Shown here one piece after another: positions 2,206 through 35,620 of a DNA stretch of 36,916 bases. Each line of letters starts with the position of its first letter. Positions within the stretch are counted from its first letter, which is position 1. The notes under the pieces were generated by a model that saw only the letters and a list, made by a program, of their open reading frames with translations, had not been told where the DNA came from and did no database searches. The stretch lies in IMG/VR virus record IMGVR_UViG_3300049893_002571, positions 1-36,916 of that record; one strand, 5' to 3'. This DNA comes from a virus (lineage: Duplodnaviria > Caudoviricetes). The translations under genes were made by a program, and so were the position numbers.

Positions 2206-2283
2206 CAGTTTAGCTTTAGACAATGTATTCAAATAGACTGACGAAGAATAAGGTAGAATAAGTAAGAACTATAGGATATAAGA

Positions 2284-11597: not shown

Positions 11598-11639
11598 GTA
11601 GAATATCCATGATACGGATTCGTATCGGTTTTATTTTAC
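11598..11639. promoter_or_regulatory. Face-to-face -10 elements flanking a 16-bp palindrome
   Basis: Plus-strand gTAGAAT (hexamer 11599-11604), minus-strand gTAAAAT (11638-11633), and GATACG-GATT-CGTATC at 11611-11626. Confidence 0.6.
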
Positions 11640-13031: not shown

Positions 13032-13060
13032 CTTCTCTAGGTTATAATAACCTGGAGGAG
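13032..13060 (+). promoter_or_regulatory. -10 box inside an RBS-sequestering hairpin upstream of the endolysin
   Basis: CTTCTCTAGGTTA-TAA-TAACCTGGAGGAG (13 bp, 2 G-U); TATAAT at 13043-13048. Confidence 0.7.
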
Positions 13061-13615: not shown

Positions 13616-13643
13616 CCGCTCTAGTTTCTGGTAGAATTAGGTC

Positions 13644-14950: not shown

Positions 14951-14963
14951 GTAGAATAGCAAC

Positions 14964-15650
14964 ATGAGTGATACAGATATATTAAAACTTTATATGAAAG
15001 AAGCGTGTAAGACACCGCTTCTCACCTATGCTCAAGAAGTTGAGCTGGCTAAAGAAATTGCCGAGGGAAATCAGAGATCAAGAGAGAAGCTTATCAAAGC
15101 CAATCTTCGCCTAGTTATCTCGATAGCTAAAGCATACAGTAATCGAGGTATGGCTCTTGAAGACTTGATTCAAGAGGGAAATATAGGCCTCATGAAGGCC
15201 ATTGAAAAATATGAATATCAGCGTGGATACAAATTCTCCACATATGCCACATGGTGGATTCGTCAAGCTGTAACTCGAGCTATAGCTGACAAGAATCGTC
15301 TAATTCGTCTACCCGTGCATATGGTGGAAACTTATAACAAAGTATCTAAAGCTATTAGCTTATTTGTGGCTGAGTTCGGTAGATCCCCTACCCATGAAGA
15401 GATAGCTAAGAGAGCAGGCGTATCACTAGACAAAGTTAACGATGTTATCCACTATGGATCCCCAATAGCTAGTATAGATGATATTCTAGTAGAAGATAGC
15501 GATGTTCGTTTCAGTGATACTCTTACTGACAACAGTACCCCGGTATCTGCTGCGATGGAGAACTCTATGAACGACATCGTCATTACGTCATTAAAAGATC
15601 TCTCTAGCAGAGAAGAAAAAATTTTGAGACTAAAATATGGAATAAAATGA
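14964..15650 (+). CDS. Sigma70-family factor (RpoD-like regions 1.2 to 4.1), lacking region 4.2
   Basis: [67 protein letters not shown]; ends [16 protein letters not shown]. Confidence 0.92.
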
Positions 15651-15874
15651 AAATCTTAATACTTCTTGGCGACAACAACAAGTATCTCACTTACAAGACT
15701 TTCACGTCTGATAAAGACTTAGACCTATTCATCGATAAGATCCACCCACTAATGATGGCCAACATCCATGGCGTTCTTCCTCTAAAGAAGAGACTTGAGA
15801 TAGTTAGAGATGATTATTTCCCTCAAGCCGGGGCAGTATTCGACTTTGTCGTTATCGACACAGAAGAAACCTAA
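15647..15874 (+). CDS. Small hypothetical protein
   Basis: 75 aa; ATGA overlap with the sigma stop. Confidence 0.6.
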
Positions 15875-15905
15875 TTTTGGGTTTCTGATAGCTACTTCCT
15901 AAAAT

Positions 15906-16080
15906 TTAACCTTCTCTTCACTACTTTACATGAGTGCGCGAAGCGCACTCATACCGCACGCGCGAAGCGCGGGCGTGCATCTCTATAGAGAATAGTTAAG
16001 AATGGTAGTGTAGGGGATTGTTAATCTTATGATACCCGCGACGAGGCATTTTTCTAAGTTAAAGCAAAAATTTTTATTGT
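15906..16080. other. Structured non-coding region: candidate replication origin or ncRNA
   Basis: ATGAGTGCGC-GAA-GCGCACTCAT (15930-15952), a second CGCGC-GAA-GCGCG hairpin (15959-15971), palindrome TCTCTATAGAGA (15980-15991), closing pair CACTAC/GTAGTG, and an adjacent A/T tract. Confidence 0.5.
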
Positions 16081-16120
16081 GTGTATAATTCGCTGGTAAT
16101 TCTTTTTAATGGAGAAGAAC

Positions 16121-16726: not shown

Positions 16727-16767
16727 GATTAAGTATAATCCTCGCATAGTATCTATGGAGGATATCA

Positions 16768-17460
16768 GTGAGCCACAATCTTGCCAAACTCTTCACTTCT
16801 AATATAAGGGTCTCAAATCTGGGACCCTTTCATGCCGATGCTATATGGCCTGCTAATATCGAACTCTGTATTACACGAGTACCCATCCGAAAGCGAGATG
16901 GATATGATGACAAGATGATGCAAGAGTTTGCAGTTAAACTCAAGAGCCAGATGGTTAAGAATGGTATCGTATTTCTTATCTGTTATGCTCCAGTTGAAGC
17001 TAAAGCTAGACCTTTTCAAGTCGCTCATTACATGAGTGAAGCTGGTTTCAATCATATCGACAATATCGTCATCCAGAAGACCTGGTATCCAGGAAAACGC
17101 TCTGAGATTAACCTGGTTAACTCTCATGAGTATGTTCTGTATTTCTGCAATGGCGATGTGTGGAATCTTGATCGACTACCTATTCGGCAATATCTAAATA
17201 CCAGCGCAGATATTTCCTGTCCAGGGAATACATGGAAAGTCGAGACCGGATCTCTCGACGAGTCTATTCCTGAGGATCTTGCCGAACTTCTACTTCGCAT
17301 GACAGACTCTCTTCCTGGATCTATAGTCTTTGACCCATTCATGGGAAATCAATCCACTATGCAAGCATCTATAAAGCTCGGTCACTCCTTCTATGGGTTT
17401 GAGACTGATCCCAAAAGAATGCAGCGTTATGAAAAACTTGTAAAAGAGGCTAAAAAATAA
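16768..17460 (+). CDS. N4/N6 DNA-methyltransferase-like protein (beta class) with degenerate catalytic motif
   Basis: HEYVLYF, IVFDPFMG, FYGFE; the motif IV position reads LCITRVPI instead of (D/S)PPY. Confidence 0.75.
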   Translation: MSHNLAKLFTSNIRVSNLGPFHADAIWPANIELCITRVPIRKRDGYDDKMMQEFAVKLKSQMVKNGIVFLICYAPVEAKARPFQVAHYMSEAGFNHIDNIVIQKTWYPGKRSEINLVNSHEYVLYFCNGDVWNLDRLPIRQYLNTSADISCPGNTWKVETGSLDESIPEDLAELLLRMTDSLPGSIVFDPFMGNQSTMQASIKLGHSFYGFETDPKRMQRYEKLVKEAKK

Positions 17461-19169
17461 TGTTTCAAAAAGTCAAAGCAAAGCAAATCTTAGCTAGTAA
17501 AGAAAAGATTCGGGATCTCGTTAATAAGACCATCGATGATATGGCAACAATTGTTGGAGCTACACTCGGCCCCGGTGGAAATCCAGTCCTTATCGAACGA
17601 GATGGCCTACCTCCGCTAGTCACTAAAGATGGGGTAACTGTAGCTAAGAACATTGGTGTCTCTGACGCTGCAGCTAATACTATTGTAGAGGCTGCGAAAG
17701 AGATCTGTATCAATACAGCAAAAGAAGCTGGCGATGGAACAACTACAGCTATCGTTCTTGCCGATGCTCTTGTCAAAGAAGGCCAGAAATTTCTGGCATC
17801 TAGGCCTAAATATAATCCACAGCGTATGATTAACGAGCTGAATGATGCCTACACCAGCGTTGTAGTGCCCTTTCTTCGTGATGTTGCTGTAAAAGTTAAC
17901 AGTGAAGAACAACTTAAATTCGTTGCAACAATCTCTGCCAATGGTGATAAGGAGATTGCTGCAGTCGTTGTTAAGGCTGTTATGGATGCTGGTGATGATG
18001 GTACGGTTCTTATCAATGAAAGCCAGGGTGGAAAGACTTATGTTGAAGTAAGTGAGGGATATATCGTAACTACCGGCCTAAAAGATCTAGGTCAAATCGG
18101 TCCTGCCTTTATCAATGATAAGGCAAATCAACAGGTCAAGATGGATAAGGGTTATATCGTGCTGTACGACGGCTCGATGAACGATCTCAAGGTTCCTGGC
18201 CTAATTCAGGATGCTGTGGCTGATGACGGTGGATTCTCCGATGGAACTCCCATCATTGTGTTTGCCCATAGTTTTGCAGACAGTGTATTAGATAAGTTTG
18301 CAAAAACGACTAAGGGCGGTCTAACGGTAGTACCTGTTAAATCACCTAGGTCTGGTCTACCAAATGGCGCCTCTATGTTTCTAGAGGATATGGCTGCATA
18401 TACCGGAGCAAAAGTCTTTGATCCAGGCAATGTTGAAGATCTTGACGAAGATGGGCTAGGTCACTTTGAGAGTGCTCGTGTAAATACGTACGAGACCTTC
18501 ATCACAGCCCTTCCTGACGGTGATGCTGTTACTAAGCGTGTTGGAGAGTTAAAAGCTATTATGGAATCAGCCATGGGCGAACTCGACCGCTCATTCCTTA
18601 GAGCTGCTATTGCTAAGTTGACAGGTGGAGTTTCTACCATACACGTAGGTGGAGCCTCTGATCTTGAAATACGTGAAAAGAAGGCTCGTGTAGAAGATGC
18701 TGTTGAAGCTGTTCGTTCAGCTATTGCTGAGGGTATTGTTACTGGCGGTTGTGGCGTTCATCTTGTTCTATCGAACATAATCCACAATCATCCAGATAAA
18801 ACAGAAGCATGGTCTATCTTAGCAGATGCTTTACAAGCACCATTTCGACTACTGCTAAAGAACTGTGGCGAGGATCTTGATGAGGTTATGGCTGAATTCG
18901 GTGAACACATTCAGCAAGGATCAAACTCCAAGCGCCTTCCTTCTAAGGTTTTCGACGCCAATAGGCACAAAATGGTTGATCCAATGAGTGCAGGCATTAT
19001 TGAACCTGCTAAGGTAATAAGAGTAAGTGTTGGCAACGCACTATCGGTGGCATCATTGCTTACAACATTGGGAGGAATCGTCGTGGTTCCCCGTGATGTA
19101 AACTTTGAAGCTCAAGCTGAACTTGCTCAAGCTGCATTTAAAAACATGATGGAGACGGCAAATGATTGA
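17460..19169 (+). CDS. groEL: Chaperonin GroEL (phage-encoded)
   Basis: TLGPGG, TKDGVTVAK, AGDGTTTA, ATISANGD, AKLTGGV, EKKARVEDAVEA, GIVTGGC, GIIEPAKV. Confidence 0.95.
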   Translation: MFQKVKAKQILASKEKIRDLVNKTIDDMATIVGATLGPGGNPVLIERDGLPPLVTKDGVTVAKNIGVSDAAANTIVEAAKEICINTAKEAGDGTTTAIVLADALVKEGQKFLASRPKYNPQRMINELNDAYTSVVVPFLRDVAVKVNSEEQLKFVATISANGDKEIAAVVVKAVMDAGDDGTVLINESQGGKTYVEVSEGYIVTTGLKDLGQIGPAFINDKANQQVKMDKGYIVLYDGSMNDLKVPGLIQDAVADDGGFSDGTPIIVFAHSFADSVLDKFAKTTKGGLTVVPVKSPRSGLPNGASMFLEDMAAYTGAKVFDPGNVEDLDEDGLGHFESARVNTYETFITALPDGDAVTKRVGELKAIMESAMGELDRSFLRAAIAKLTGGVSTIHVGGASDLEIREKKARVEDAVEAVRSAIAEGIVTGGCGVHLVLSNIIHNHPDKTEAWSILADALQAPFRLLLKNCGEDLDEVMAEFGEHIQQGSNSKRLPSKVFDANRHKMVDPMSAGIIEPAKVIRVSVGNALSVASLLTTLGGIVVVPRDVNFEAQAELAQAAFKNMMETAND

Positions 19170-21986: not shown

Positions 21987-21998
21987 TATGATATAGCT

Positions 21999-22268
21999 AT
22001 GGATAAAGCTACATCAAAACTTTTAGAGTTAAGAGAAGCCCTTGAAAAGGCCATCACTTTGCCGTCTCCTAAGATGCCTAAAATACCAGGCCCACCAAAA
22101 GTAGATGCACCAGCTGCCCCAAAACAGCCTAACTTAACCCCAACTTCTAAAAAAGACCCAACTAAAGTGGCCCAGCAAATGGAAGATCCAGATGCTAAGG
22201 CTAACGCCCTCAAGATGGCTAAACAGAAGCTAACCCTCGCCAAGAACGGTCAATGGTCATTAGTATAA
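21999..22268 (+). CDS. Proline-rich hypothetical protein, probably leaderless
   Basis: 89 aa; TGaTATGAT hexamer at -12..-7 of the ATG and no SD; ends KLTLAKNGQWSLV. Confidence 0.7.
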   Translation: MDKATSKLLELREALEKAITLPSPKMPKIPGPPKVDAPAAPKQPNLTPTSKKDPTKVAQQMEDPDAKANALKMAKQKLTLAKNGQWSLV

Positions 22269-22287
22269 TTCTCATATTGGAGAATAT

Positions 22288-22698
22288 ATGGCCACCAAGA
22301 AGAAGCGTCCCAAATATAATGCTCAATCAGCCATAAGATCTGCACTTCGCAGAACTTTTTCTCGTTCACCTATGGTGCGAGAAGTAATGATGAAAGTTCG
22401 CAGAGAGCGTCCCTGGTTTAAAACCGACGGCTCACAAGCTGCCAAGCCCCGCGTAGAGTACTTGTGCTCAGTGTGCGGCGAATGGTATATGGGTAAAGAT
22501 ATACAGGTCGACCACAAAGATCCCGTTGTTGATCCTGCAATAGGTTTTGTAAACTGGGATACCTTTATTTCACGCTTATTCTGCGATGTTAATAACTTAG
22601 CCGTAATCTGTAAAAATGACCATAAAGCTAAAACAGATAGTGAAAAAGCAGCCGCTGTAGAAAGACGTAAACGCCTTAAGGAATCCGAGAATAGGTAA
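22288..22698 (+). CDS. HNH endonuclease
   Basis: YLCSVCG, IQVDHKDPV, NNLAVICKNDHKAKT; RBS GGAG. Confidence 0.85.
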   Translation: MATKKKRPKYNAQSAIRSALRRTFSRSPMVREVMMKVRRERPWFKTDGSQAAKPRVEYLCSVCGEWYMGKDIQVDHKDPVVDPAIGFVNWDTFISRLFCDVNNLAVICKNDHKAKTDSEKAAAVERRKRLKESENR

Positions 22699-22741
22699 AA
22701 TCGTTTTGTTACGGTGTTATTAATTTTTAAGGAGACATATT

Positions 22742-23038: not shown

Positions 23039-23089
23039 GTCCAAAGGATGATACAATAGTTATGTATCATCCTAATTGGAGAATGACAT

Positions 23090-23475: not shown

Positions 23476-23522
23476 CGCCGTATCTGTAGAATACAACAGA
23501 ATTGTATTCAGAGGAGATACGC

Positions 23523-26500
23523 ATGAATTTTTTATGGGTTGACGTAGAGACAACTGGATTATATCCAGAGAAAAATGATATAGTCCAACTTGCGTGTATA
23601 CCTATAACTTTGGGTAAAGAGCAATCTCCGTTTAATGAATTCTGTCAGCCGGTGAATTGGCAGAATATAGAAGAGGGTGCGGTTAAGGCTCATGGCATCA
23701 CGGTCGAGCGCATGAGGACCTTCCAAACCCCTGTAGTTATGTTAGATAGGTTTATTGCATATCTTCGATCATTTAATACTAAGTTTGTTATTGCGGGATA
23801 TAACGTAAACTTCGACAAAAGATTTCTAAGCTCATTCTTTACGCGTAATGGTAGGGCTAATGAGTTTTTTGAATTATTTGAGCTACAGGTTCACGATACA
23901 TATACAAGAGCTCAAAAAGTAAAAACACTTCTTAAAACAGAAAACCTAAAACTTGCAACTCTAGCAAAGCACTTCGATATAAGCATTAATGCCCATGAAG
24001 CTATGTCGGATATTTCTGCTACGATAGGTGTCGATAGAAAGATCGGAGAATTGTTAGGCGAAGAGGCATTCACTGAAGAGGTAGTCGAGACATTACCCAC
24101 TATTCATTTGACAACCGAATTTAAGGAACCTGCTCAACTCCACCTACATTCTATGTATGGCATGGCGGAATCTGTTCCTTCTATAGAAGAGTGGGTCGAA
24201 TGGTGTAAGAAAACAAAGACACCAGGATTTAGCATAGTTGACCATGGGCCTGCTGTATCCATGTACCACATGACGCGTCTAAATGACCCTAGCATAGTAG
24301 GCATTCCAGGTGTCGGAATCTATATGTATAGAGACCACGAGCCAGACACCCTATATCCTATGAATGTTTGGGCAGTAAATAATGATGGTTATTTCAATTT
24401 AATGAAACTAGCATCACTAGGATACGACGAACAAGTAGTTCTAGACGGAGTCACCTATCCTAAGCTAAAAGTCGAGGTTGTTCATCAATACAAGAAGGGC
24501 CTATTATTTGGAGTCGCGGACGTATATGGACCTGTGGGTCAAGCCATACTTGAAGGCAATAGGGAAAAAGCTGTTGAGCGTTTTAGTGTATATCTGAATA
24601 ATTTTAAGGATCAGATGTATGTAGAGTTTAATCCGGTTTCTATACGCGAAACTTTCTCTACTAAGAGTGGCTTTCAGAAGATAAAAAAGAACTCGCTAGT
24701 GGTAGACGGAGATTGGAATAAGACTTATAATAAATTCTTGTCTGAGCTCGTAGATGAGCATAGTCTATCATGTGTTCCAGTAAGCGGCGCACACTTTATT
24801 GAGCCTGGTGACAAACTTCTGCAAGAGTGTATATCTAGAAACTCTTTTACCAGTGGAAAGTGCTACATCGAGTCTTATCATGTTAAGACTGCTAGCCAGC
24901 TATTTAAAGAGCTAAAGGGTCAACTAGGGGAGTGGTTGGACGAAGACAAGTTTGCTTCTTGGATTAACAACACCCACAAGATAATGGATGCGGCTAAAGA
25001 TATAAAGATAGCTTTCAGCTACAATATGCCCACAATAGAAATCCCTGATAGCATAAAAGCTAAGACCGATGACTATAATAAGCAAACTTTAATGTATGCA
25101 ATAGAGTTGTGCAAGAAACACGGTCGCTGGAGCGATGATCCTGTATACGTTGCTCGCTTCAAAAAAGAGATCGATGTAATCGTTAAAAACGAGGCTACAA
25201 ACTTCCTTCCGTACTTCTTGATGTACGAAGATATCTGTACCTATGCCCGTTCTTTAGGTATTCTTCAGAACATTGGTCGTGGTTCAGCTGGTGGCTGTTT
25301 ATTGTCATATTATCTAAAGATCATCCATATTGACCCAATTAAGGCCGATCTTCCCTTCGAGCGATTCTTGTCTCACGCACGTATTCGTGCTAAGTCTTTT
25401 CCAGATATTGACTGCGACTTTGGCGATAGGACAGAGATTCTTCGATATCTAGAGAAGAAGTATGGTCTCGGTTTTGCCCAGATCTGTACGTTTCAGAAGA
25501 TGAAGACTAAAAACGCTATCAAAGATGCTATGTGGGCACTTTATGGTAGAAATCGCGAAGATTTCGAGATCAAACAGTTGTGCGAGCTTATCCCTGACTC
25601 ACCTCAAGGTGTAGATGAGTATGACTTTATCTATGGCTTCACTGATAAAGAAGGCGTTGTTCATCAAGGCGTGGTAGAAACTGTCCCAGAAATTGCTCGA
25701 TTTTTCGAACAGTATCGTCAGGTCGAAGAGATGATTAAGCGCCTTATTGGTATTCCTAGGGGTTGGGGACGACATGCTTCAGCATTCGTTGTCTCAACAG
25801 TAGATCTATCCTCTAGTCGTGTTCCTACTATGCGTATGTGGGATAAGAATACCAATGAGATGATTCAGGTAACGCAATATGAAGCCCCAATGGTAGAGGC
25901 ATCTGGTCTAGTAAAAGCAGATATTCTAGGTGTAACCACTATTAACATGGTTTCTGAATGTCTTAGGTTGGTTAAGGAGCGCACAGGAATTGACTATCTT
26001 GAAGAAGATGATAAAGGTGTGGCAAAGATATATCGTCTACCAGACGATCAGGATGTATATGTTGACTTCTATCAGAAGAAGACCGACTCATCTTTCCAAT
26101 TCAACACATCCCTGATTAAGGGATACATACAGCAGTTCTGTCCTACTAGTCGAGAACACTTATCTGCTCTTACAGCTCTTTGCCGACCGGGTACACTAGA
26201 TGCACCCATGGTTAATGACGAGATAAAGAAAGATGATGGTATTTCTGCTGCGCAATACTATATGGATGTTCGCGGCGGTAGACGAAACCTAAGCTATCTT
26301 CATAAAGATCTAGCATCATGTACCTCTAACGGCGTCTTCGTATACCAAGAAGAGGTTATGAAGTTTCTAGTTGATATTGCTGGTTATACTCTAGAAGAAG
26401 CCGACCAGATTCGTGGTGCTATCGCAAAGAAAAAGCGCGAAATCATGATGGCGACCTTTGATCGTATTAGGGAATCAACAGCGGTTAGGGGTTGGACAAA

Positions 26501-27545
26501 AGATCAGTCTAATACAATCTGTGAACAGGTCGAAGCATTCTCACGCTACTCCTTTAATAGGTCTCACTCAAGATGTTATGCAGAATTGGGATACATAACC
26601 ATGTATCTTAAGCACCACCATCGATTAGAGTGGTGGTCTGCTGTTCTTAATAACACAGACAAGGAAGATAAGCTGCGTAACTTTATGCATCTTCTCGGGA
26701 CAACCATTAATCCTCCATCTCTAGCTATTCCGACAGATAAGTTTGCAATTGTTGGAAGCAAGATTGTTGCACCACTCTCGGCTGTAAAAAAGGTTGGCCC
26801 ATCGTCTGTTCAGGAGTTGGTTACAAAAGGCCCATTCACCAACCTGCATGACTATGTAGAAAAGGTTGCCCATAATAAGGTGAATGTGGGACACTTTGTT
26901 GCACTTATTCATGCAAGAGCTGCAGATTCTTTCATGGACAAAGATATCCCTTATGGTGAAGCCAGGAAGAAGCTGTTTGCTGACTATGTGAAATTGCGTA
27001 AGATAAAGCGGGAATCTGCCGAACTCAACGAGACCAATCCAGTTTACATATTCCTGATGGAGCGAGAATATAATAAGTGCTTTAATAAGACGGTCATCGA
27101 AGATGAGGCTATCCAGGCACTTATTCAAAAAGCTATGCCAGGATTTGCACCTACGCATCGCACTGGTATTCCATTTTATATGGGTAGAAATCTTCCAATT
27201 CTTTCTGGCGCTAAAATCGCACACGGTTTAGCATCAAAGGAATACGACAAACAAGTAGGCATGATTCTCTTATATGAAGCATCGACACACAAAAGCGGAA
27301 TCTCCAAGAAAACCAAACGCAAGTATAATTTCGTCAAGGTAGATCTATCTGATGGAAGCACTACGATAGAGTGCACCTGGTGGGACCAAGAGAAAGCACT
27401 AAAGTGGCCTAAAAATAGTATAGTGTTTGTCAAAGGGAAGCTTTCTGAAGGTTGGAAAGGTTCTGTTAGACTCACTGTCGATGAAATGGAGAAACTAATC
27501 GATGTCAAAATTTCTAGTAGTCAAGAATCCTCCGCAGAATCTTGA
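23523..27545 (+). CDS. dnaE: DNA polymerase III alpha (family C) with N-terminal DnaQ-like 3'-5' exonuclease
   Basis: DEDDh motifs DVETTG, GYNVNFD and HEAMSD; PHP motif HLHSMY; GRGSAGG, FERFL, PDIDCDF, GRHASA, KADILG, VYQEEVM, YSFNRSH; C-terminal OB fold. GAGGAG precedes ATG 23523. Confidence 0.95.
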   Translation: MNFLWVDVETTGLYPEKNDIVQLACIPITLGKEQSPFNEFCQPVNWQNIEEGAVKAHGITVERMRTFQTPVVMLDRFIAYLRSFNTKFVIAGYNVNFDKRFLSSFFTRNGRANEFFELFELQVHDTYTRAQKVKTLLKTENLKLATLAKHFDISINAHEAMSDISATIGVDRKIGELLGEEAFTEEVVETLPTIHLTTEFKEPAQLHLHSMYGMAESVPSIEEWVEWCKKTKTPGFSIVDHGPAVSMYHMTRLNDPSIVGIPGVGIYMYRDHEPDTLYPMNVWAVNNDGYFNLMKLASLGYDEQVVLDGVTYPKLKVEVVHQYKKGLLFGVADVYGPVGQAILEGNREKAVERFSVYLNNFKDQMYVEFNPVSIRETFSTKSGFQKIKKNSLVVDGDWNKTYNKFLSELVDEHSLSCVPVSGAHFIEPGDKLLQECISRNSFTSGKCYIESYHVKTASQLFKELKGQLGEWLDEDKFASWINNTHKIMDAAKDIKIAFSYNMPTIEIPDSIKAKTDDYNKQTLMYAIELCKKHGRWSDDPVYVARFKKEIDVIVKNEATNFLPYFLMYEDICTYARSLGILQNIGRGSAGGCLLSYYLKIIHIDPIKADLPFERFLSHARIRAKSFPDIDCDFGDRTEILRYLEKKYGLGFAQICTFQKMKTKNAIKDAMWALYGRNREDFEIKQLCELIPDSPQGVDEYDFIYGFTDKEGVVHQGVVETVPEIARFFEQYRQVEEMIKRLIGIPRGWGRHASAFVVSTVDLSSSRVPTMRMWDKNTNEMIQVTQYEAPMVEASGLVKADILGVTTINMVSECLRLVKERTGIDYLEEDDKGVAKIYRLPDDQDVYVDFYQKKTDSSFQFNTSLIKGYIQQFCPTSREHLSALTALCRPGTLDAPMVNDEIKKDDGISAAQYYMDVRGGRRNLSYLHKDLASCTSNGVFVYQEEVMKFLVDIAGYTLEEADQIRGAIAKKKREIMMATFDRIRESTAVRGWTKDQSNTICEQVEAFSRYSFNRSHSRCYAELGYITMYLKHHHRLEWWSAVLNNTDKEDKLRNFMHLLGTTINPPSLAIPTDKFAIVGSKIVAPLSAVKKVGPSSVQELVTKGPFTNLHDYVEKVAHNKVNVGHFVALIHARAADSFMDKDIPYGEARKKLFADYVKLRKIKRESAELNETNPVYIFLMEREYNKCFNKTVIEDEAIQALIQKAMPGFAPTHRTGIPFYMGRNLPILSGAKIAHGLASKEYDKQVGMILLYEASTHKSGISKKTKRKYNFVKVDLSDGSTTIECTWWDQEKALKWPKNSIVFVKGKLSEGWKGSVRLTVDEMEKLIDVKISSSQESSAES

Positions 27546-28020: not shown

Positions 28021-28098
28021 TCTTGTATAATAGAAATGTCAAATAATTGACACGTCTTTCTAACTATTGCCTAATAGGCACAAACAAAGGAGAATTGT

Positions 28099-29202
28099 AT
28101 GGGTAAGATTACGATTAACATGGACTCTTTAAAGTCTAGTCGCGACTGGGTACGACACAAAGTCAATGATGGGGCTAATATCTTTAGGATTCTGCCTCCC
28201 TTCGGTGACCCAGATCAGCACAACAACTACCCCTATCGCCGCTGGTCTATCGCTTGGCTGCAAGATCCAAAATCTGGCAAGCGTCGTCCATTCGCCACAC
28301 CAATGACCGATGGCGAGACATGCCCTGTTCAAGAGTATTGTGATGCTCTTAATACATACATTGAAGACCGCAAAAGTCAGCTAAAATCAGAAGGATACTC
28401 TGATGGTGACACCAAAGCAGAGCTAGAAGGTCTGCGCAGTGTTCAGTGGAATATGCGCCTACAGCATGTATATGCTTACAATGCCTGCGACCAAGCTGGT
28501 ACCGTTGGTATTCTTGAGCTTAAGTCTACTGCTCACAAAGCAATGAAGAAAATGATGAACACCTATATCAAGGACTACGGACAAGATCCTACGTCTCTTG
28601 GTTCAGCAGATGACGATAGTGGTGTTTGGTTCAATATCTCAAAAGAGGGTAAAGGTAAAGACACAGAATATTCTGTTGCCTTCCACCAAACTCGTCAGAA
28701 AATGAATGGTCAACTCGTCAAGATCGATGACCGCACTGCTCTTCCTGAGCACGTGGTCTCTAATTACGAGAGTCTAGCATATGATTTGGGCAGCATCTAT
28801 CTGCGCAAAAACTATGACGAACTCTCTTCAATTCTGTTGTTCAACATCGCCCTTATCGCCCAAGAGGTTCCAGAGGCAACTCTAGGCACTTACGACATTT
28901 CTAATGTCGATGTAAAAACCGGCGCAACTGTTCTTAAGAAAACTTCTTCTACAACAGAAGAGGAAGAAGTTCAAGCAGCACCGGTTAAAAAGGCAGCTGC
29001 ACCTAAGGTTACTCTAAATCTCGGCGACGACGATGATTCCGATGATGAACCCACGCCTGCTCGTAAGTCAGCGCCAGTCGCAAAAGCTGCTCCAGCACCT
29101 GTTCGTACCGCCCCCGCACAACAGGTAAAGAAATCTGCGCCTGTTCAATCGTATGATGACGACGAACTTAGTGCTTTAACGGCAGAAATTTTGGGAGACT
29201 AA
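28099..29202 (+). CDS. Single-stranded DNA-binding protein (T4 gp32-like)
   Basis: FRILPP, CPVQE, DPT...G..F.ISKEGKGKDTEYSV; long A/P-rich linker and acidic tail; RBS AAGGAG; upstream of recA. Confidence 0.8.
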   Translation: MGKITINMDSLKSSRDWVRHKVNDGANIFRILPPFGDPDQHNNYPYRRWSIAWLQDPKSGKRRPFATPMTDGETCPVQEYCDALNTYIEDRKSQLKSEGYSDGDTKAELEGLRSVQWNMRLQHVYAYNACDQAGTVGILELKSTAHKAMKKMMNTYIKDYGQDPTSLGSADDDSGVWFNISKEGKGKDTEYSVAFHQTRQKMNGQLVKIDDRTALPEHVVSNYESLAYDLGSIYLRKNYDELSSILLFNIALIAQEVPEATLGTYDISNVDVKTGATVLKKTSSTTEEEEVQAAPVKKAAAPKVTLNLGDDDDSDDEPTPARKSAPVAKAAPAPVRTAPAQQVKKSAPVQSYDDDELSALTAEILGD

Positions 29203-29203
29203 T

Positions 29204-29680
29204 ATGTCTTCAGACCTTGTAAAGGTCGAGGAGAGCCTTCGGGCTCTCCGTCTCGATCGCTTAGCTGAATTCACAAAGAAGATCGAGGATATTTCTAAGG
29301 GGTTCAACACTATGTTGGCCCCTGTATATCTTCGAGATTTCATCATGGCATATGACTTCACGAACACTATGCTTGCCTCAGCAATGAGGTGTCATGGCAT
29401 CGCCGAATCTGCACAAAAGACCGCTGAGGCTATCGCTTATTTCGAGAACGCTCCTGATTACCTTCAAGAGAAGGGTGTTAAGGATAGCGATGCTGCTCGA
29501 AAACGCTATATCCCCATGGATCCTGCTGTGCAACAGGCCGATAAAGTCAAGGCTCAGGCAGAAGCAATGGTAACCTTCTTAAGGAATAAGTTGCAAGAGT
29601 TTCGCTTAGCTCACGACGATGTTAAAAAGATAGCATATGCAAATGAGTACAACAACGATTCACCGAATGAGGGTATGTAG
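29204..29680 (+). CDS. Helical protein, putative UvsY-like recombination mediator
   Basis: 158 aa, all-helical pattern, located between SSB and RecA; the call rests on position and size only. Confidence 0.45.
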   Translation: MSSDLVKVEESLRALRLDRLAEFTKKIEDISKGFNTMLAPVYLRDFIMAYDFTNTMLASAMRCHGIAESAQKTAEAIAYFENAPDYLQEKGVKDSDAARKRYIPMDPAVQQADKVKAQAEAMVTFLRNKLQEFRLAHDDVKKIAYANEYNNDSPNEGM

Positions 29681-29741
29681 TATACTCTCATAACAACCTG
29701 CGCTACGGCGCTTGTCTACGGACGTAAAAGGAGGAAATGTT

Positions 29742-30866
29742 ATGGCAAAGAATAAGTGGATGTCACAATTGACAAAGGGTGTAGCTCAGGCAGCAGCTGA
29801 TCTGCCGAGGCCATCAGATAATGTTGTTGCGCTGCCATCACCGTCACTTAATTGGGTGGTTGGTAATGGCGGTATTACCCTAGGTAAAGCAGTTTGCTTT
29901 TATGGACCTGAATCAGGTGGTAAGAGTTTTCTGGCTCAACTACTAATGATTCAACTTCAGAAAGACTTTCCAGAAGGTATCTGTATCTGGTTTGATGCAG
30001 AATTCTCCTTCAATCCTGAGTGGTTCGCTAAGCTCGGCGGTGATCCTGAGCGCCTTATCGTAAAGCAGACCAACGATCCTCTAGAAATCTTTGACTACAT
30101 TGAGAAGGATCTTCAGGTTCTATTGCAAGATGGTTGCCCAATTGTTGGTATGGCTATTGACTCAGTGAAGGCGATCCGGTATCCGAAAGATATCAAAGAG
30201 AAGTCAACCAAACAAACCATGGGTGGTGGCGGAGCTTCTTATCTGGGTTCTGCCCTCAAAGGTATTCTTCCTGTTATTCGTAAATATAGCATCACTACTG
30301 CACTTATCCAACAAGTGTATGAAGAGATGGACGAATACAAAAAGATGAACAACCCATATCTAGTGCCAGATGGTCGAGCATTAAAGCACTTCTGTGATTA
30401 CATGCTTGAGGTTGCTAGGATCGACACTAAAGACGGTCGCGTAGAGAAGGGCAAGAATATCTATGGTGGCGCTGCACAAATCGGCCACAAGGTTCGCGTC
30501 CGCGGTAAGAAGAATCGCGTAGGTGCTCCTTTCCGTGCTGCCGAGTTTACCCTAACCTACACAAAGGGTATCACCAATATTGGCGAAGAGGTCTATGAGT
30601 TGGCTAAGAGTCTTAAGGTTGTTAAACACCCAATCAATCCAGAGACCGGTAAAGAAAGCCCAATGATGTGGCAGCTTGGTGATGATGCCACAACACAGAT
30701 TAAGGGTGAAGATAACTTCAAAAAAATCTTTCTGTCTAAACCCGATATGTGGGATAAGGCAATGACCTTATGTAACAGCATTGAAGATGAGGACGAAGTT
30801 ATTCTTCTTCGTAATAAAGAACTTGGCTATATAGATGCAGAACTTGGGGCACCAGAGCTTGAGTAA
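29742..30866 (+). CDS. recA: RecA/UvsX recombinase
   Basis: YGPESGGKS, WFDAE, AIDSV, PDGRALKH, KKNRVGAPFR; AGGAGG precedes ATG 29742. Confidence 0.92.
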   Translation: MAKNKWMSQLTKGVAQAAADLPRPSDNVVALPSPSLNWVVGNGGITLGKAVCFYGPESGGKSFLAQLLMIQLQKDFPEGICIWFDAEFSFNPEWFAKLGGDPERLIVKQTNDPLEIFDYIEKDLQVLLQDGCPIVGMAIDSVKAIRYPKDIKEKSTKQTMGGGGASYLGSALKGILPVIRKYSITTALIQQVYEEMDEYKKMNNPYLVPDGRALKHFCDYMLEVARIDTKDGRVEKGKNIYGGAAQIGHKVRVRGKKNRVGAPFRAAEFTLTYTKGITNIGEEVYELAKSLKVVKHPINPETGKESPMMWQLGDDATTQIKGEDNFKKIFLSKPDMWDKAMTLCNSIEDEDEVILLRNKELGYIDAELGAPELE

Positions 30867-35582: not shown

Positions 35583-35620
35583 TGATGACTACTGTATAAT
35601 AGAAGTTAAGTGAGGACTAT

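Follow-up and report, generated by a model that had tools for sequence, protein, structure and literature searches.

A phage RpoD-derived sigma factor with a conserved cut between regions 4.1 and 4.2, in a family whose predicted -10-only promoters are independent of it

In sigma factors, regions 2.3-2.4 read and melt the -10 element and region 3.0 reads positions -14/-13. Appropriation of sigma by the T4 proteins AsiA and MotA yields a sigma70-type holoenzyme that is unable to use -35 elements. According to the part of PMC6237814 available to us, which cites Minakhin and Severinov 2003, a laboratory version of E. coli sigma70 that ends at residue 565, sigma70(1-565), transcribes from the extended -10 promoter galP1 but not from T7 A1. 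Other sigma factors consist of two subunits: the accessible part of bioRxiv 10.64898/2026.10.01.756105 lists T4 gp55 with gp33, SPO1 gp33 with gp34, SigO-RsoA of B. subtilis and Sig7-Sig8 of Tn916, with both subunits required in T4 and SPO1, and none of the split sigmas listed there uses a cut between 4.1 and 4.2. In the literature that we covered (mostly open papers) we found no description of a phage RpoD cut after region 4.1.

The DNA analysed here (36.9 kb, referred to as the window) is a piece of a large tailed phage genome and encodes GroEL, DnaE, RecA, an SbcC-like protein, terminase and portal. It also carries a sigma gene whose parts are given below by window position; identities are mean pairwise values among 14 representatives that are <70% identical.

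14964 to 15650, plus strand: RpoD-derived sigma factor of 228 aa with regions 1.2, 2, 3 and 4.1, without region 1.1, the non-conserved region and region 4.2
15216 to 15299, plus strand: regions 2.3-2.4 (aa 85-112), the RpoD-type segment for -10 reading and melting and the most conserved part (identity 0.84)
15300 to 15341, plus strand: region 3.0 (aa 113-126, RLPVHMVE; identity 0.73)
15579 to 15647, plus strand: region 4.1 stump (aa 206-228), where a separately encoded helix-turn-helix (HTH) protein is predicted to dock (model interface 212-228)
15647 to 15874, plus strand: 75-aa ORF overlapping the sigma stop, not HTH-like and without a Pfam match

Pfam recognized region 1.2 (aa 5-37), region 2 (aa 43-112) and region 3 (aa 122-191) in this protein and did not recognize region 4. 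Residue 227 aligned with residue 565 of E. coli sigma70, and the end point is equivalent to 565-566. The chain begins at region 1.2, and of the features of a group 1 RpoD it has regions 1.2, 2.1-2.4 and 3.0, while the HTH of region 4.2 is not in the same chain. RpoD was the best NCBIfam family, but below all cut-offs. An earlier note, made from the sequence alone, had described the protein as an RpoD-derived sigma that keeps regions 1.2, 2 and 3.0 and stops after 4.1; the Pfam matches and the sigma70 alignment agree with this, as do the near-canonical regions 1.2, 2 and 3.0 and the ∼48% identity to RpoD. The note had also found the HTH missing in three frames, and indeed the TLEEVG/RERIRQ helix was absent from the three forward frames over 15590-16110; a frameshifted or read-through region 4.2 was ruled out, as nothing was found in the three frames. 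We likewise rejected the 75-aa ORF at the sigma stop as the missing HTH: it is not HTH-like, it is present in five close relatives only, and it is missing behind the sigma gene in the related contig G005 and in the second subclade. Residue E122, the counterpart of sigma70 E458, which reads -14/-13, is almost invariant in A3. The closest full-length RpoD proteins end in RMRFGIGEKSDHTLEEVGQDF, an ending that we assume to be deltaproteobacterial, and the look-up for a host or donor returned a single, weak match to a prokaryote genome (34%).

Could the short protein simply be a damaged gene? The best 27 clusters (65-100% identical) contained proteins of 218-236 aa without Pfam region 4. We aligned 48 truncated homologues, 44-94% identical to the copy in the complete relative G001: 47 had 0-4 residues beyond the column of residue 227 and one had eight, a count that gives the common end point and not the proportion of truncated proteins, since the homologues had been preselected by length and by the lack of region 4. 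The truncated sigmas formed a single branch apart from full-length RpoD, both in a quick tree of 56 rows (SH-aLRT 88) and in a tree of 21 rows (support 0.99). In all six sigma pairs compared pN was 0.09-0.15 versus a pS of 0.71-0.86. Identity in the region 4.1 stump was 0.52 versus 0.17 in the linker ahead of it, and it was 0.74 in the core-binding regions 2.1-2.2. Residues L213, R216, E218 and K219 of the stump were present in 14/14 representatives, and the hydrophobic character of positions 213, 220, 221, 223 and 225 was retained in 14/14, although the part that covers them is gone. The cut within domain 4 is conserved and under purifying selection. Because of the shared end in 47/48 homologues, which bears out the conserved stop, and because of this selection, the sigma gene is not a pseudogene. 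For a pseudogene or an assembly error nothing speaks except the missing domain, and with the common end point and a pN far under pS this explanation is refuted, its chance being practically nil. The read support is consistent with this in part: an identical sigma sequence is present in a contig of depth 57.6, but this contig may be the source run itself.

The earlier note had further proposed that 16 TAnnnT hexamers at gene boundaries are -10-only promoters that match the sigma. All 16 were reproduced, 13 of them with G at -13 and three with TG at -15/-14, and they are listed here in window order.

2253 to 2259, plus strand: GTAGAAT, predicted promoter of the GIY-YIG and tail genes
11598 to 11604, plus strand: GTAGAAT, predicted promoter of the DEAD helicase gene
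11633 to 11639, minus strand: GTAAAAT, predicted promoter of the DnaB/primase operon
13043 to 13048, plus strand: TATAAT before the lysozyme gene (T at -13, no TG; GGT)
13631 to 13637, plus strand: TGGTAGAAT, predicted promoter of the metallophosphoesterase gene
14951 to 14957, plus strand: GTAGAAT, predicted -10-only promoter of the sigma gene, 6 nt ahead of its ATG; predicted leaderless mRNA
16083 to 16089, plus strand: GTATAAT, predicted promoter of the dUTPase gene
16733 to 16739, plus strand: GTATAAT, predicted promoter of the methylase and GroEL genes
21987 to 21992, plus strand: TGA-TATGAT, weaker extended -10-type site
22263 to 22269, plus strand: GTATAAT, predicted promoter
22695 to 22701, plus strand: GTAAAAT, predicted promoter
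23052 to 23057, plus strand: TGA-TACAAT, extended -10-type site
23486 to 23492, plus strand: GTAGAAT, predicted promoter of the DnaE gene
28025 to 28031, plus strand: GTATAAT, predicted promoter of the gp32-like SSB gene
29680 to 29686, plus strand: GTATACT, predicted promoter of the RecA gene
35594 to 35600, plus strand: GTATAAT, predicted promoter of the portal gene

A properly spaced TTGACA, which the note had not seen either, was not found: at spacers of 16-18 the best match was at most 4/6 (2/16 sites). The expected enrichment held for GTAnAAT, which occurred 12 times in 38 upstream regions, where 300 dinucleotide shuffles gave 2.6 on average and never more than 7, but not for bare TAnnnT (118 versus 114; 103 of the 300 shuffles reached 118), and the bare hexamer was therefore dropped as a promoter signal. 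Thus, the signal exceeds chance only when the -13 G is included. Thirteen of the 18 GTAnAAT in the window lie at most 150 nt from a start on the same strand, where 8% of positions would be expected to do so.

Two further observations concern the window. At 15930-15978 there are two adjoining DNA hairpins with GAA loops, a 10-bp perfect stem and a GCGAAGC core, and an ACCCGCG block lies downstream of them, ahead of the dUTPase gene. Hairpins with altered stems stand at the same place in G002-G005, G007, G008 and G015, and the element is a candidate origin or packaging signal. Several large genes have the following window positions.

17460 to 19169: GroEL
23502 to 27545: DnaE with an N-terminal exonuclease
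28099 to 30866: gp32-like SSB and RecA

The RecA of G001 is nearer to the RecA of G007, G008, G011 and G012 than to that of the window, suggesting exchange.

Do the promoters belong to the sigma? We compared eight complete relatives of 166-177 kb, G001 collected through its sigma (83% identical) and the other seven through the HTH gene described below. In six-frame HMM searches the trimmed RpoD was present in three of them (G001, G013 and G015), and no RpoD-like sigma was found in the six frames of G006, G007, G008, G011 and G012; in G006-G009 other genes stand between lysozyme and dUTPase. GTATAAT stood before genes in 18/49, 28/44 and 31/64 cases in the three sigma-bearing genomes and in 38/76, 25/35, 22/43, 26/41 and 12/25 cases in the sigma-less G006, G007, G008, G011 and G012, respectively, where 6-8% would be expected; the enrichment was significant in 8/8 complete relatives (p 1e-7 to 1e-22). 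The GTAnAAT promoter class is therefore family-wide and independent of the trimmed sigma, because five of the eight relatives keep the promoters without it. There was no -35 information in 75 sites of sigma-bearing contigs or in 157 sites of four others: from -38 to -27 no 4-mer stood out (lowest uncorrected p about 0.007; information no higher than 0.16 bit per position), and in 11 contigs -35 matches of at least 4/6 did not rise above chance. Having detected none in either group of genomes, we rejected a -35 or activator box for these sites, and promoter shape was not clearly different in genomes that have the sigma and in genomes that lack it. In G006, G007, G008 and G011, GTAKAAT lies 12-14 nt ahead of the start in 15/67, 10/30, 9/29 and 11/45 cases, respectively, a spacing pointing to leaderless mRNAs as probably common in these genomes.

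The sigma-bearing genomes form one clade (support 0.993, eight concatenated genes), in which the sigma was present in 5/5 examined members, its gene in at least two slots. GTAGAAT-N6-ATG precedes the sigma gene in six contigs (the window, G001, G003, G004, G005 and G015), and in G013 the gene stands behind GTATAAT. As the sigma gene lies behind its own GTAGAAT site, the sigma cannot start the GTAnAAT programme. Thus, the trimmed sigma is a clade-specific addition, expressed by a programme that it could amplify, and only its RpoD-type region 2.4 connects it to GTAnAAT sites. The strong form of the earlier proposal, in which the trimmed sigma is the dedicated and required reader of the -10-only promoters, is very improbable: an RpoD-type region 2.4 does suit TAnAAT and the gene is fixed in the examined members of its own clade, but with the promoters kept in five sigma-less relatives, and with a sigma gene that needs a GTAnAAT-type promoter itself, this form is largely refuted at family level. 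What remains of the idea of a redirecting sigma is that the protein is RpoD-derived, that its cut is conserved and selected and that the promoters are without a -35 consensus; its pairing with a matched promoter set did not survive, as the same promoters are equally enriched without it.

The earlier note had missed three genes that lie beyond the window in relatives: two that encode sigma domain 2 only and one for a separate HTH protein that resembles sigma region 4.2. In G001 the HTH gene (60343-60783) is located between portal and prohead protease and encodes a Cys-rich protein of 146 aa that resembles region 4.2 in its C-terminal half (Pfam Sigma70_r4 E 2.4e-4, below cut-off). The protein falls into region-4 clusters of the ESM Atlas (0.91-0.96), and its family comprises 232 clusters. 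It is present in 8/8 complete relatives, including 3/3 sigma-bearing ones, a count that is biased as seven of the eight (two of the three sigma-bearing) were collected through the HTH itself. The window genome is a 37-kb fragment, and its HTH gene is inferred from G001, which has the 83% identical sigma. The complex model of G001 sigma 160-228 with G001 HTH 12-135 reached 0.74 compared to 0.00 for the best of three controls; the mark applied is passed by 116/157 solved and 2/215 mismatched pairs. At least 78% of contacts agreed between runs, the partner pLDDT was at least 75, and the modelled interface packs stump residues 212-228 on HTH helices 86-113. The pass may reflect a memory of intact domain 4, as tends to occur with the halves of split domains. 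Other findings speak against a plain split. With hhalign the HTH fell on the related HTH of region 3.1 instead of 4.2 (probability 45% and 43%). Foldseek with the HTH model gave nothing at E 0.001, with sigma chains at the top ranks, and VIA reached Z 4.1 at best. The predicted interface residues were less conserved (0.61) than the remaining HTH protein (0.77). The HTH gene is kept in five complete genomes that have no stump sigma, and no other gene with regions 3-4.1 was found among the 65 clusters shared by the sigma-less genomes, so that such a gene was rejected as the source of a stump there. Therefore the main partner of the HTH is something else.

The recognition helix of the HTH is conserved (S98 invariant, D/E100, K103, K104, K107). 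This would suit a full two-element sigma made of the trimmed sigma and the HTH, reading an upstream box at a few promoters that are hidden in the pooled counts. With no 4-mer standing out at -38 to -27 and at most 0.16 bit per position there, we regard this as distinctly improbable.

Among cultured phages, Myxococcus phage Mx1 has the closest terminase (28%), and 27 of its 243 called genes match G001. Its sigma WNM70309 ('putative RNA polymerase sigma factor') aligns to A3 26-224 and ends four residues on (probability 94%); compared to the trimmed RpoD its region 2.4 is highly diverged, and Mx1 has its own upstream motif, GATCAAC (16/29 near starts), and no GTATAAT. A tblastn search with the HTH against cultured phages gave no match, and none in Mx1 on the first search. 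An unannotated 80-aa HTH-like ORF lies before DnaE in Mx1 (OR576727.2 157455-157697, minus strand; L379:17455-17697) and is a weak hhalign match (E 0.002, probability 13%) to the HTH protein of the family. The sigma is left undiscussed in the part of the Mx1 genome announcement available to us (PMC10720576), and the accessible part of the myxovirus preprint contains no discussion of such a sigma. With a sigma ending at the same stump in a cultured phage, the system becomes testable. A larger and separate group of phage sigmas (L009 and most of L014-L080; 35-42% identical) also has no region 4.2; its members carry an acidic tail of 23-29 aa and RLPAHA in region 3.0, and in L009, L014, L015 and L020 the next gene encodes an HTH-like protein of 90-107 aa. 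Because this group is a separate branch, its loss of 4.2 is likely to have been independent.

The family encodes other sigma parts. A FliA-type sigma domain 2 is found in 8/8 complete relatives behind GTAnAAT sites; it is a free protein where the trimmed RpoD occurs (three genomes), and in the remaining five it is joined to the C-terminal end of a head-region protein. It is a candidate for an early sigma carried in the particle. A 129-aa core protein with the sigma domain 2 fold is likewise present in 8/8 complete relatives (315 clusters). Its model had a pLDDT of 84 and its top 12 VIA rows were all sigma chains (Z 6.3-8.0). When its family was compared with the sigma alignment by hhalign, the probability was 1.7%. 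The protein is a candidate gp55-like reader of GTAnAAT. A further small core protein (G001:100501-100770, minus strand) weakly matches the RNAP-binding domain of SutA (E 5e-4, below cut-off) and is possibly another polymerase-binding factor.

G015 L332:1396-1767, minus strand: FliA-type domain 2
G001:112083-112517: FliA-type domain 2
G013:129112-129591: FliA-type domain 2
G006:114234-115733: FliA-type domain 2
G001:87545-87934, minus strand: 129-aa sigma-domain-2 protein
L090:7548-7934: 129-aa sigma-domain-2 protein
Window 11620 to 11631, minus strand: AAACCGATACGA, belonging to a second promoter class that resembles the FliA -10 and is predicted to be early

This second class, (A/G)A-CCGA(T/A)NCGA, lies 28-60 nt ahead of starts and keeps to one strand in the small-gene region (G001 85-143 kb, minus strand). 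Of its occurrences, 23/25 in G001, 15/22 in G006, 12/22 in G015 and 10/10 in G009 are so placed; it is weak in G007, G008, G011, G012 and G013. The 129-aa gene of G001 lies 44 nt downstream of a site of this class. In the accessible part of PMC3627812, a CCGATA FliA -10 box heads 92/140 attack-phase promoters of Bdellovibrio; the CCGA class resembles that box but is without a -35 box, and TTAAG/TAAAG was rejected as its -35 box since it was not enriched.

How might the trimmed sigma act? We give an even chance to the reading that it is an optional booster of GTAnAAT promoters whose domain 4 is completed in trans by the separate HTH protein. Host RpoD or the core protein consisting of sigma domain 2 only would open the GTAnAAT programme first, and the sigma gene would be transcribed as part of this programme through the GTAGAAT site ahead of it, creating positive feedback. 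The sigma would load on the host core via regions 2.1-2.2 and 3, read TAnAAT with 2.3-2.4 and the -13 G with 3.0, and be unable to use the -35 promoters of the host. The HTH protein would cover the 4.1 stump and rebuild a domain-4-like unit, which, because no -35 box is conserved, would serve the contact with the polymerase flap rather than the reading of a -35 box.

Alternatively, the sigma may be a stand-alone, -10-only accessory factor without a partner, its stump serving for flap contact only and the HTH belonging to another complex. This is rather unlikely. Sigma70(1-565) is active alone on galP1 in the available part of PMC6237814, the HTH is kept without the trimmed sigma in 5/8 complete genomes, its interface residues are not especially conserved and there is no -35 box for it to read; against these points stand the sigma-HTH model well above its controls, the stump hydrophobics kept in 14/14 representatives with their cover gone, and Mx1, where a small HTH ORF likewise, if weakly, accompanies a stump sigma. 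It is quite unlikely that the sigma is instead a competitor for the core, stripping it from host sigmas and silencing -35-dependent host genes late while other factors perform phage transcription. Its conserved regions 2.1-2.2, its predicted expression from a middle/late-type site, its dispensability for the GTAnAAT class and the failure of the 1-565 holoenzyme on -10/-35 promoters (PMC6237814, in the part available) would all fit, but a pure decoy needs neither regions 2.3-2.4 nor region 3.0, and these are as conserved as the core-binding regions or more so (0.84 and 0.73 versus 0.74).

The optional booster may also be one item in a kit of loose sigma parts. A late-made, particle-carried FliA-type domain 2 would open the CCGAT-NCGA early promoters, the gp55-like protein or RpoD would open GTAnAAT, and the free HTH would snap onto region 4.1 of the trimmed RpoD or, displacing host 4.2, of host RpoD, giving a -35-blind housekeeping holoenzyme. 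We consider this scheme unlikely; if it were true, an early motif of the FliA type would fit a host that is infectable when driven by FliA, for example attack-phase predators of the Bdellovibrio type.

The comparison with the relatives warns against taking a phage sigma for the required reader of a motif simply because the two match and lie together. New are the independence of promoters and HTH from the trimmed sigma, the two additional sigma parts and a test system in culture. The locus suggests that domain 4 can be divided between 4.1 and 4.2. It makes testable the role of region 4.1 when 4.2 is missing, and whether a phage can exchange the helix with which a housekeeping sigma reads -35. 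For orthogonal expression, a sigma that ignores -35 elements and takes up a separate HTH would offer a tool.

Compared with group 1 RpoD and with full-length RpoD-like sigmas of phages (Microcystis phage MaAM05), the phage sigma has near-canonical regions 1.2, 2 and 3.0 but neither region 1.1 nor region 4.2. It shares the C-terminal cut of E. coli sigma70(1-565) and is predicted to be active on -10-only and not on -10/-35 promoters, making it a natural, long-selected counterpart of that laboratory mutant; it differs in being natural, selected and old, in having also no region 1.1 and no non-conserved region, and in promoters that mostly have -13G, with TG in only 3/16. With T4 AsiA/MotA it shares a like outcome, except that here the loss of -35 use is encoded in the phage's sigma copy and no MotA-box-like element was detected. 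T4 gp55 is highly diverged and has essentially domain 2 only, all members need it for their late genes, and it is activated via a sliding clamp, whereas the trimmed sigma is ∼48% identical to RpoD with domains 2, 3 and 4.1 and is absent from 5/8 complete relatives; the -10-only promoters are alike at the level of the motif only, and the 129-aa core protein of the family fits the gp55 type better. As in the two-subunit sigmas, insofar as these are covered by the available part of bioRxiv 10.64898/2026.10.01.756105, functions would be distributed over separate genes, and the predicted late-type promoters are -10-only as in T4. In contrast to those pairs, the cut separates 4.1 from 4.2 within domain 4, the large piece remains close to RpoD, the sigma and HTH genes lie ∼25 kb apart in G001, and the large piece is dispensable at family level, with the HTH alone in five of the eight complete relatives, so that the two do not behave as an obligate pair.
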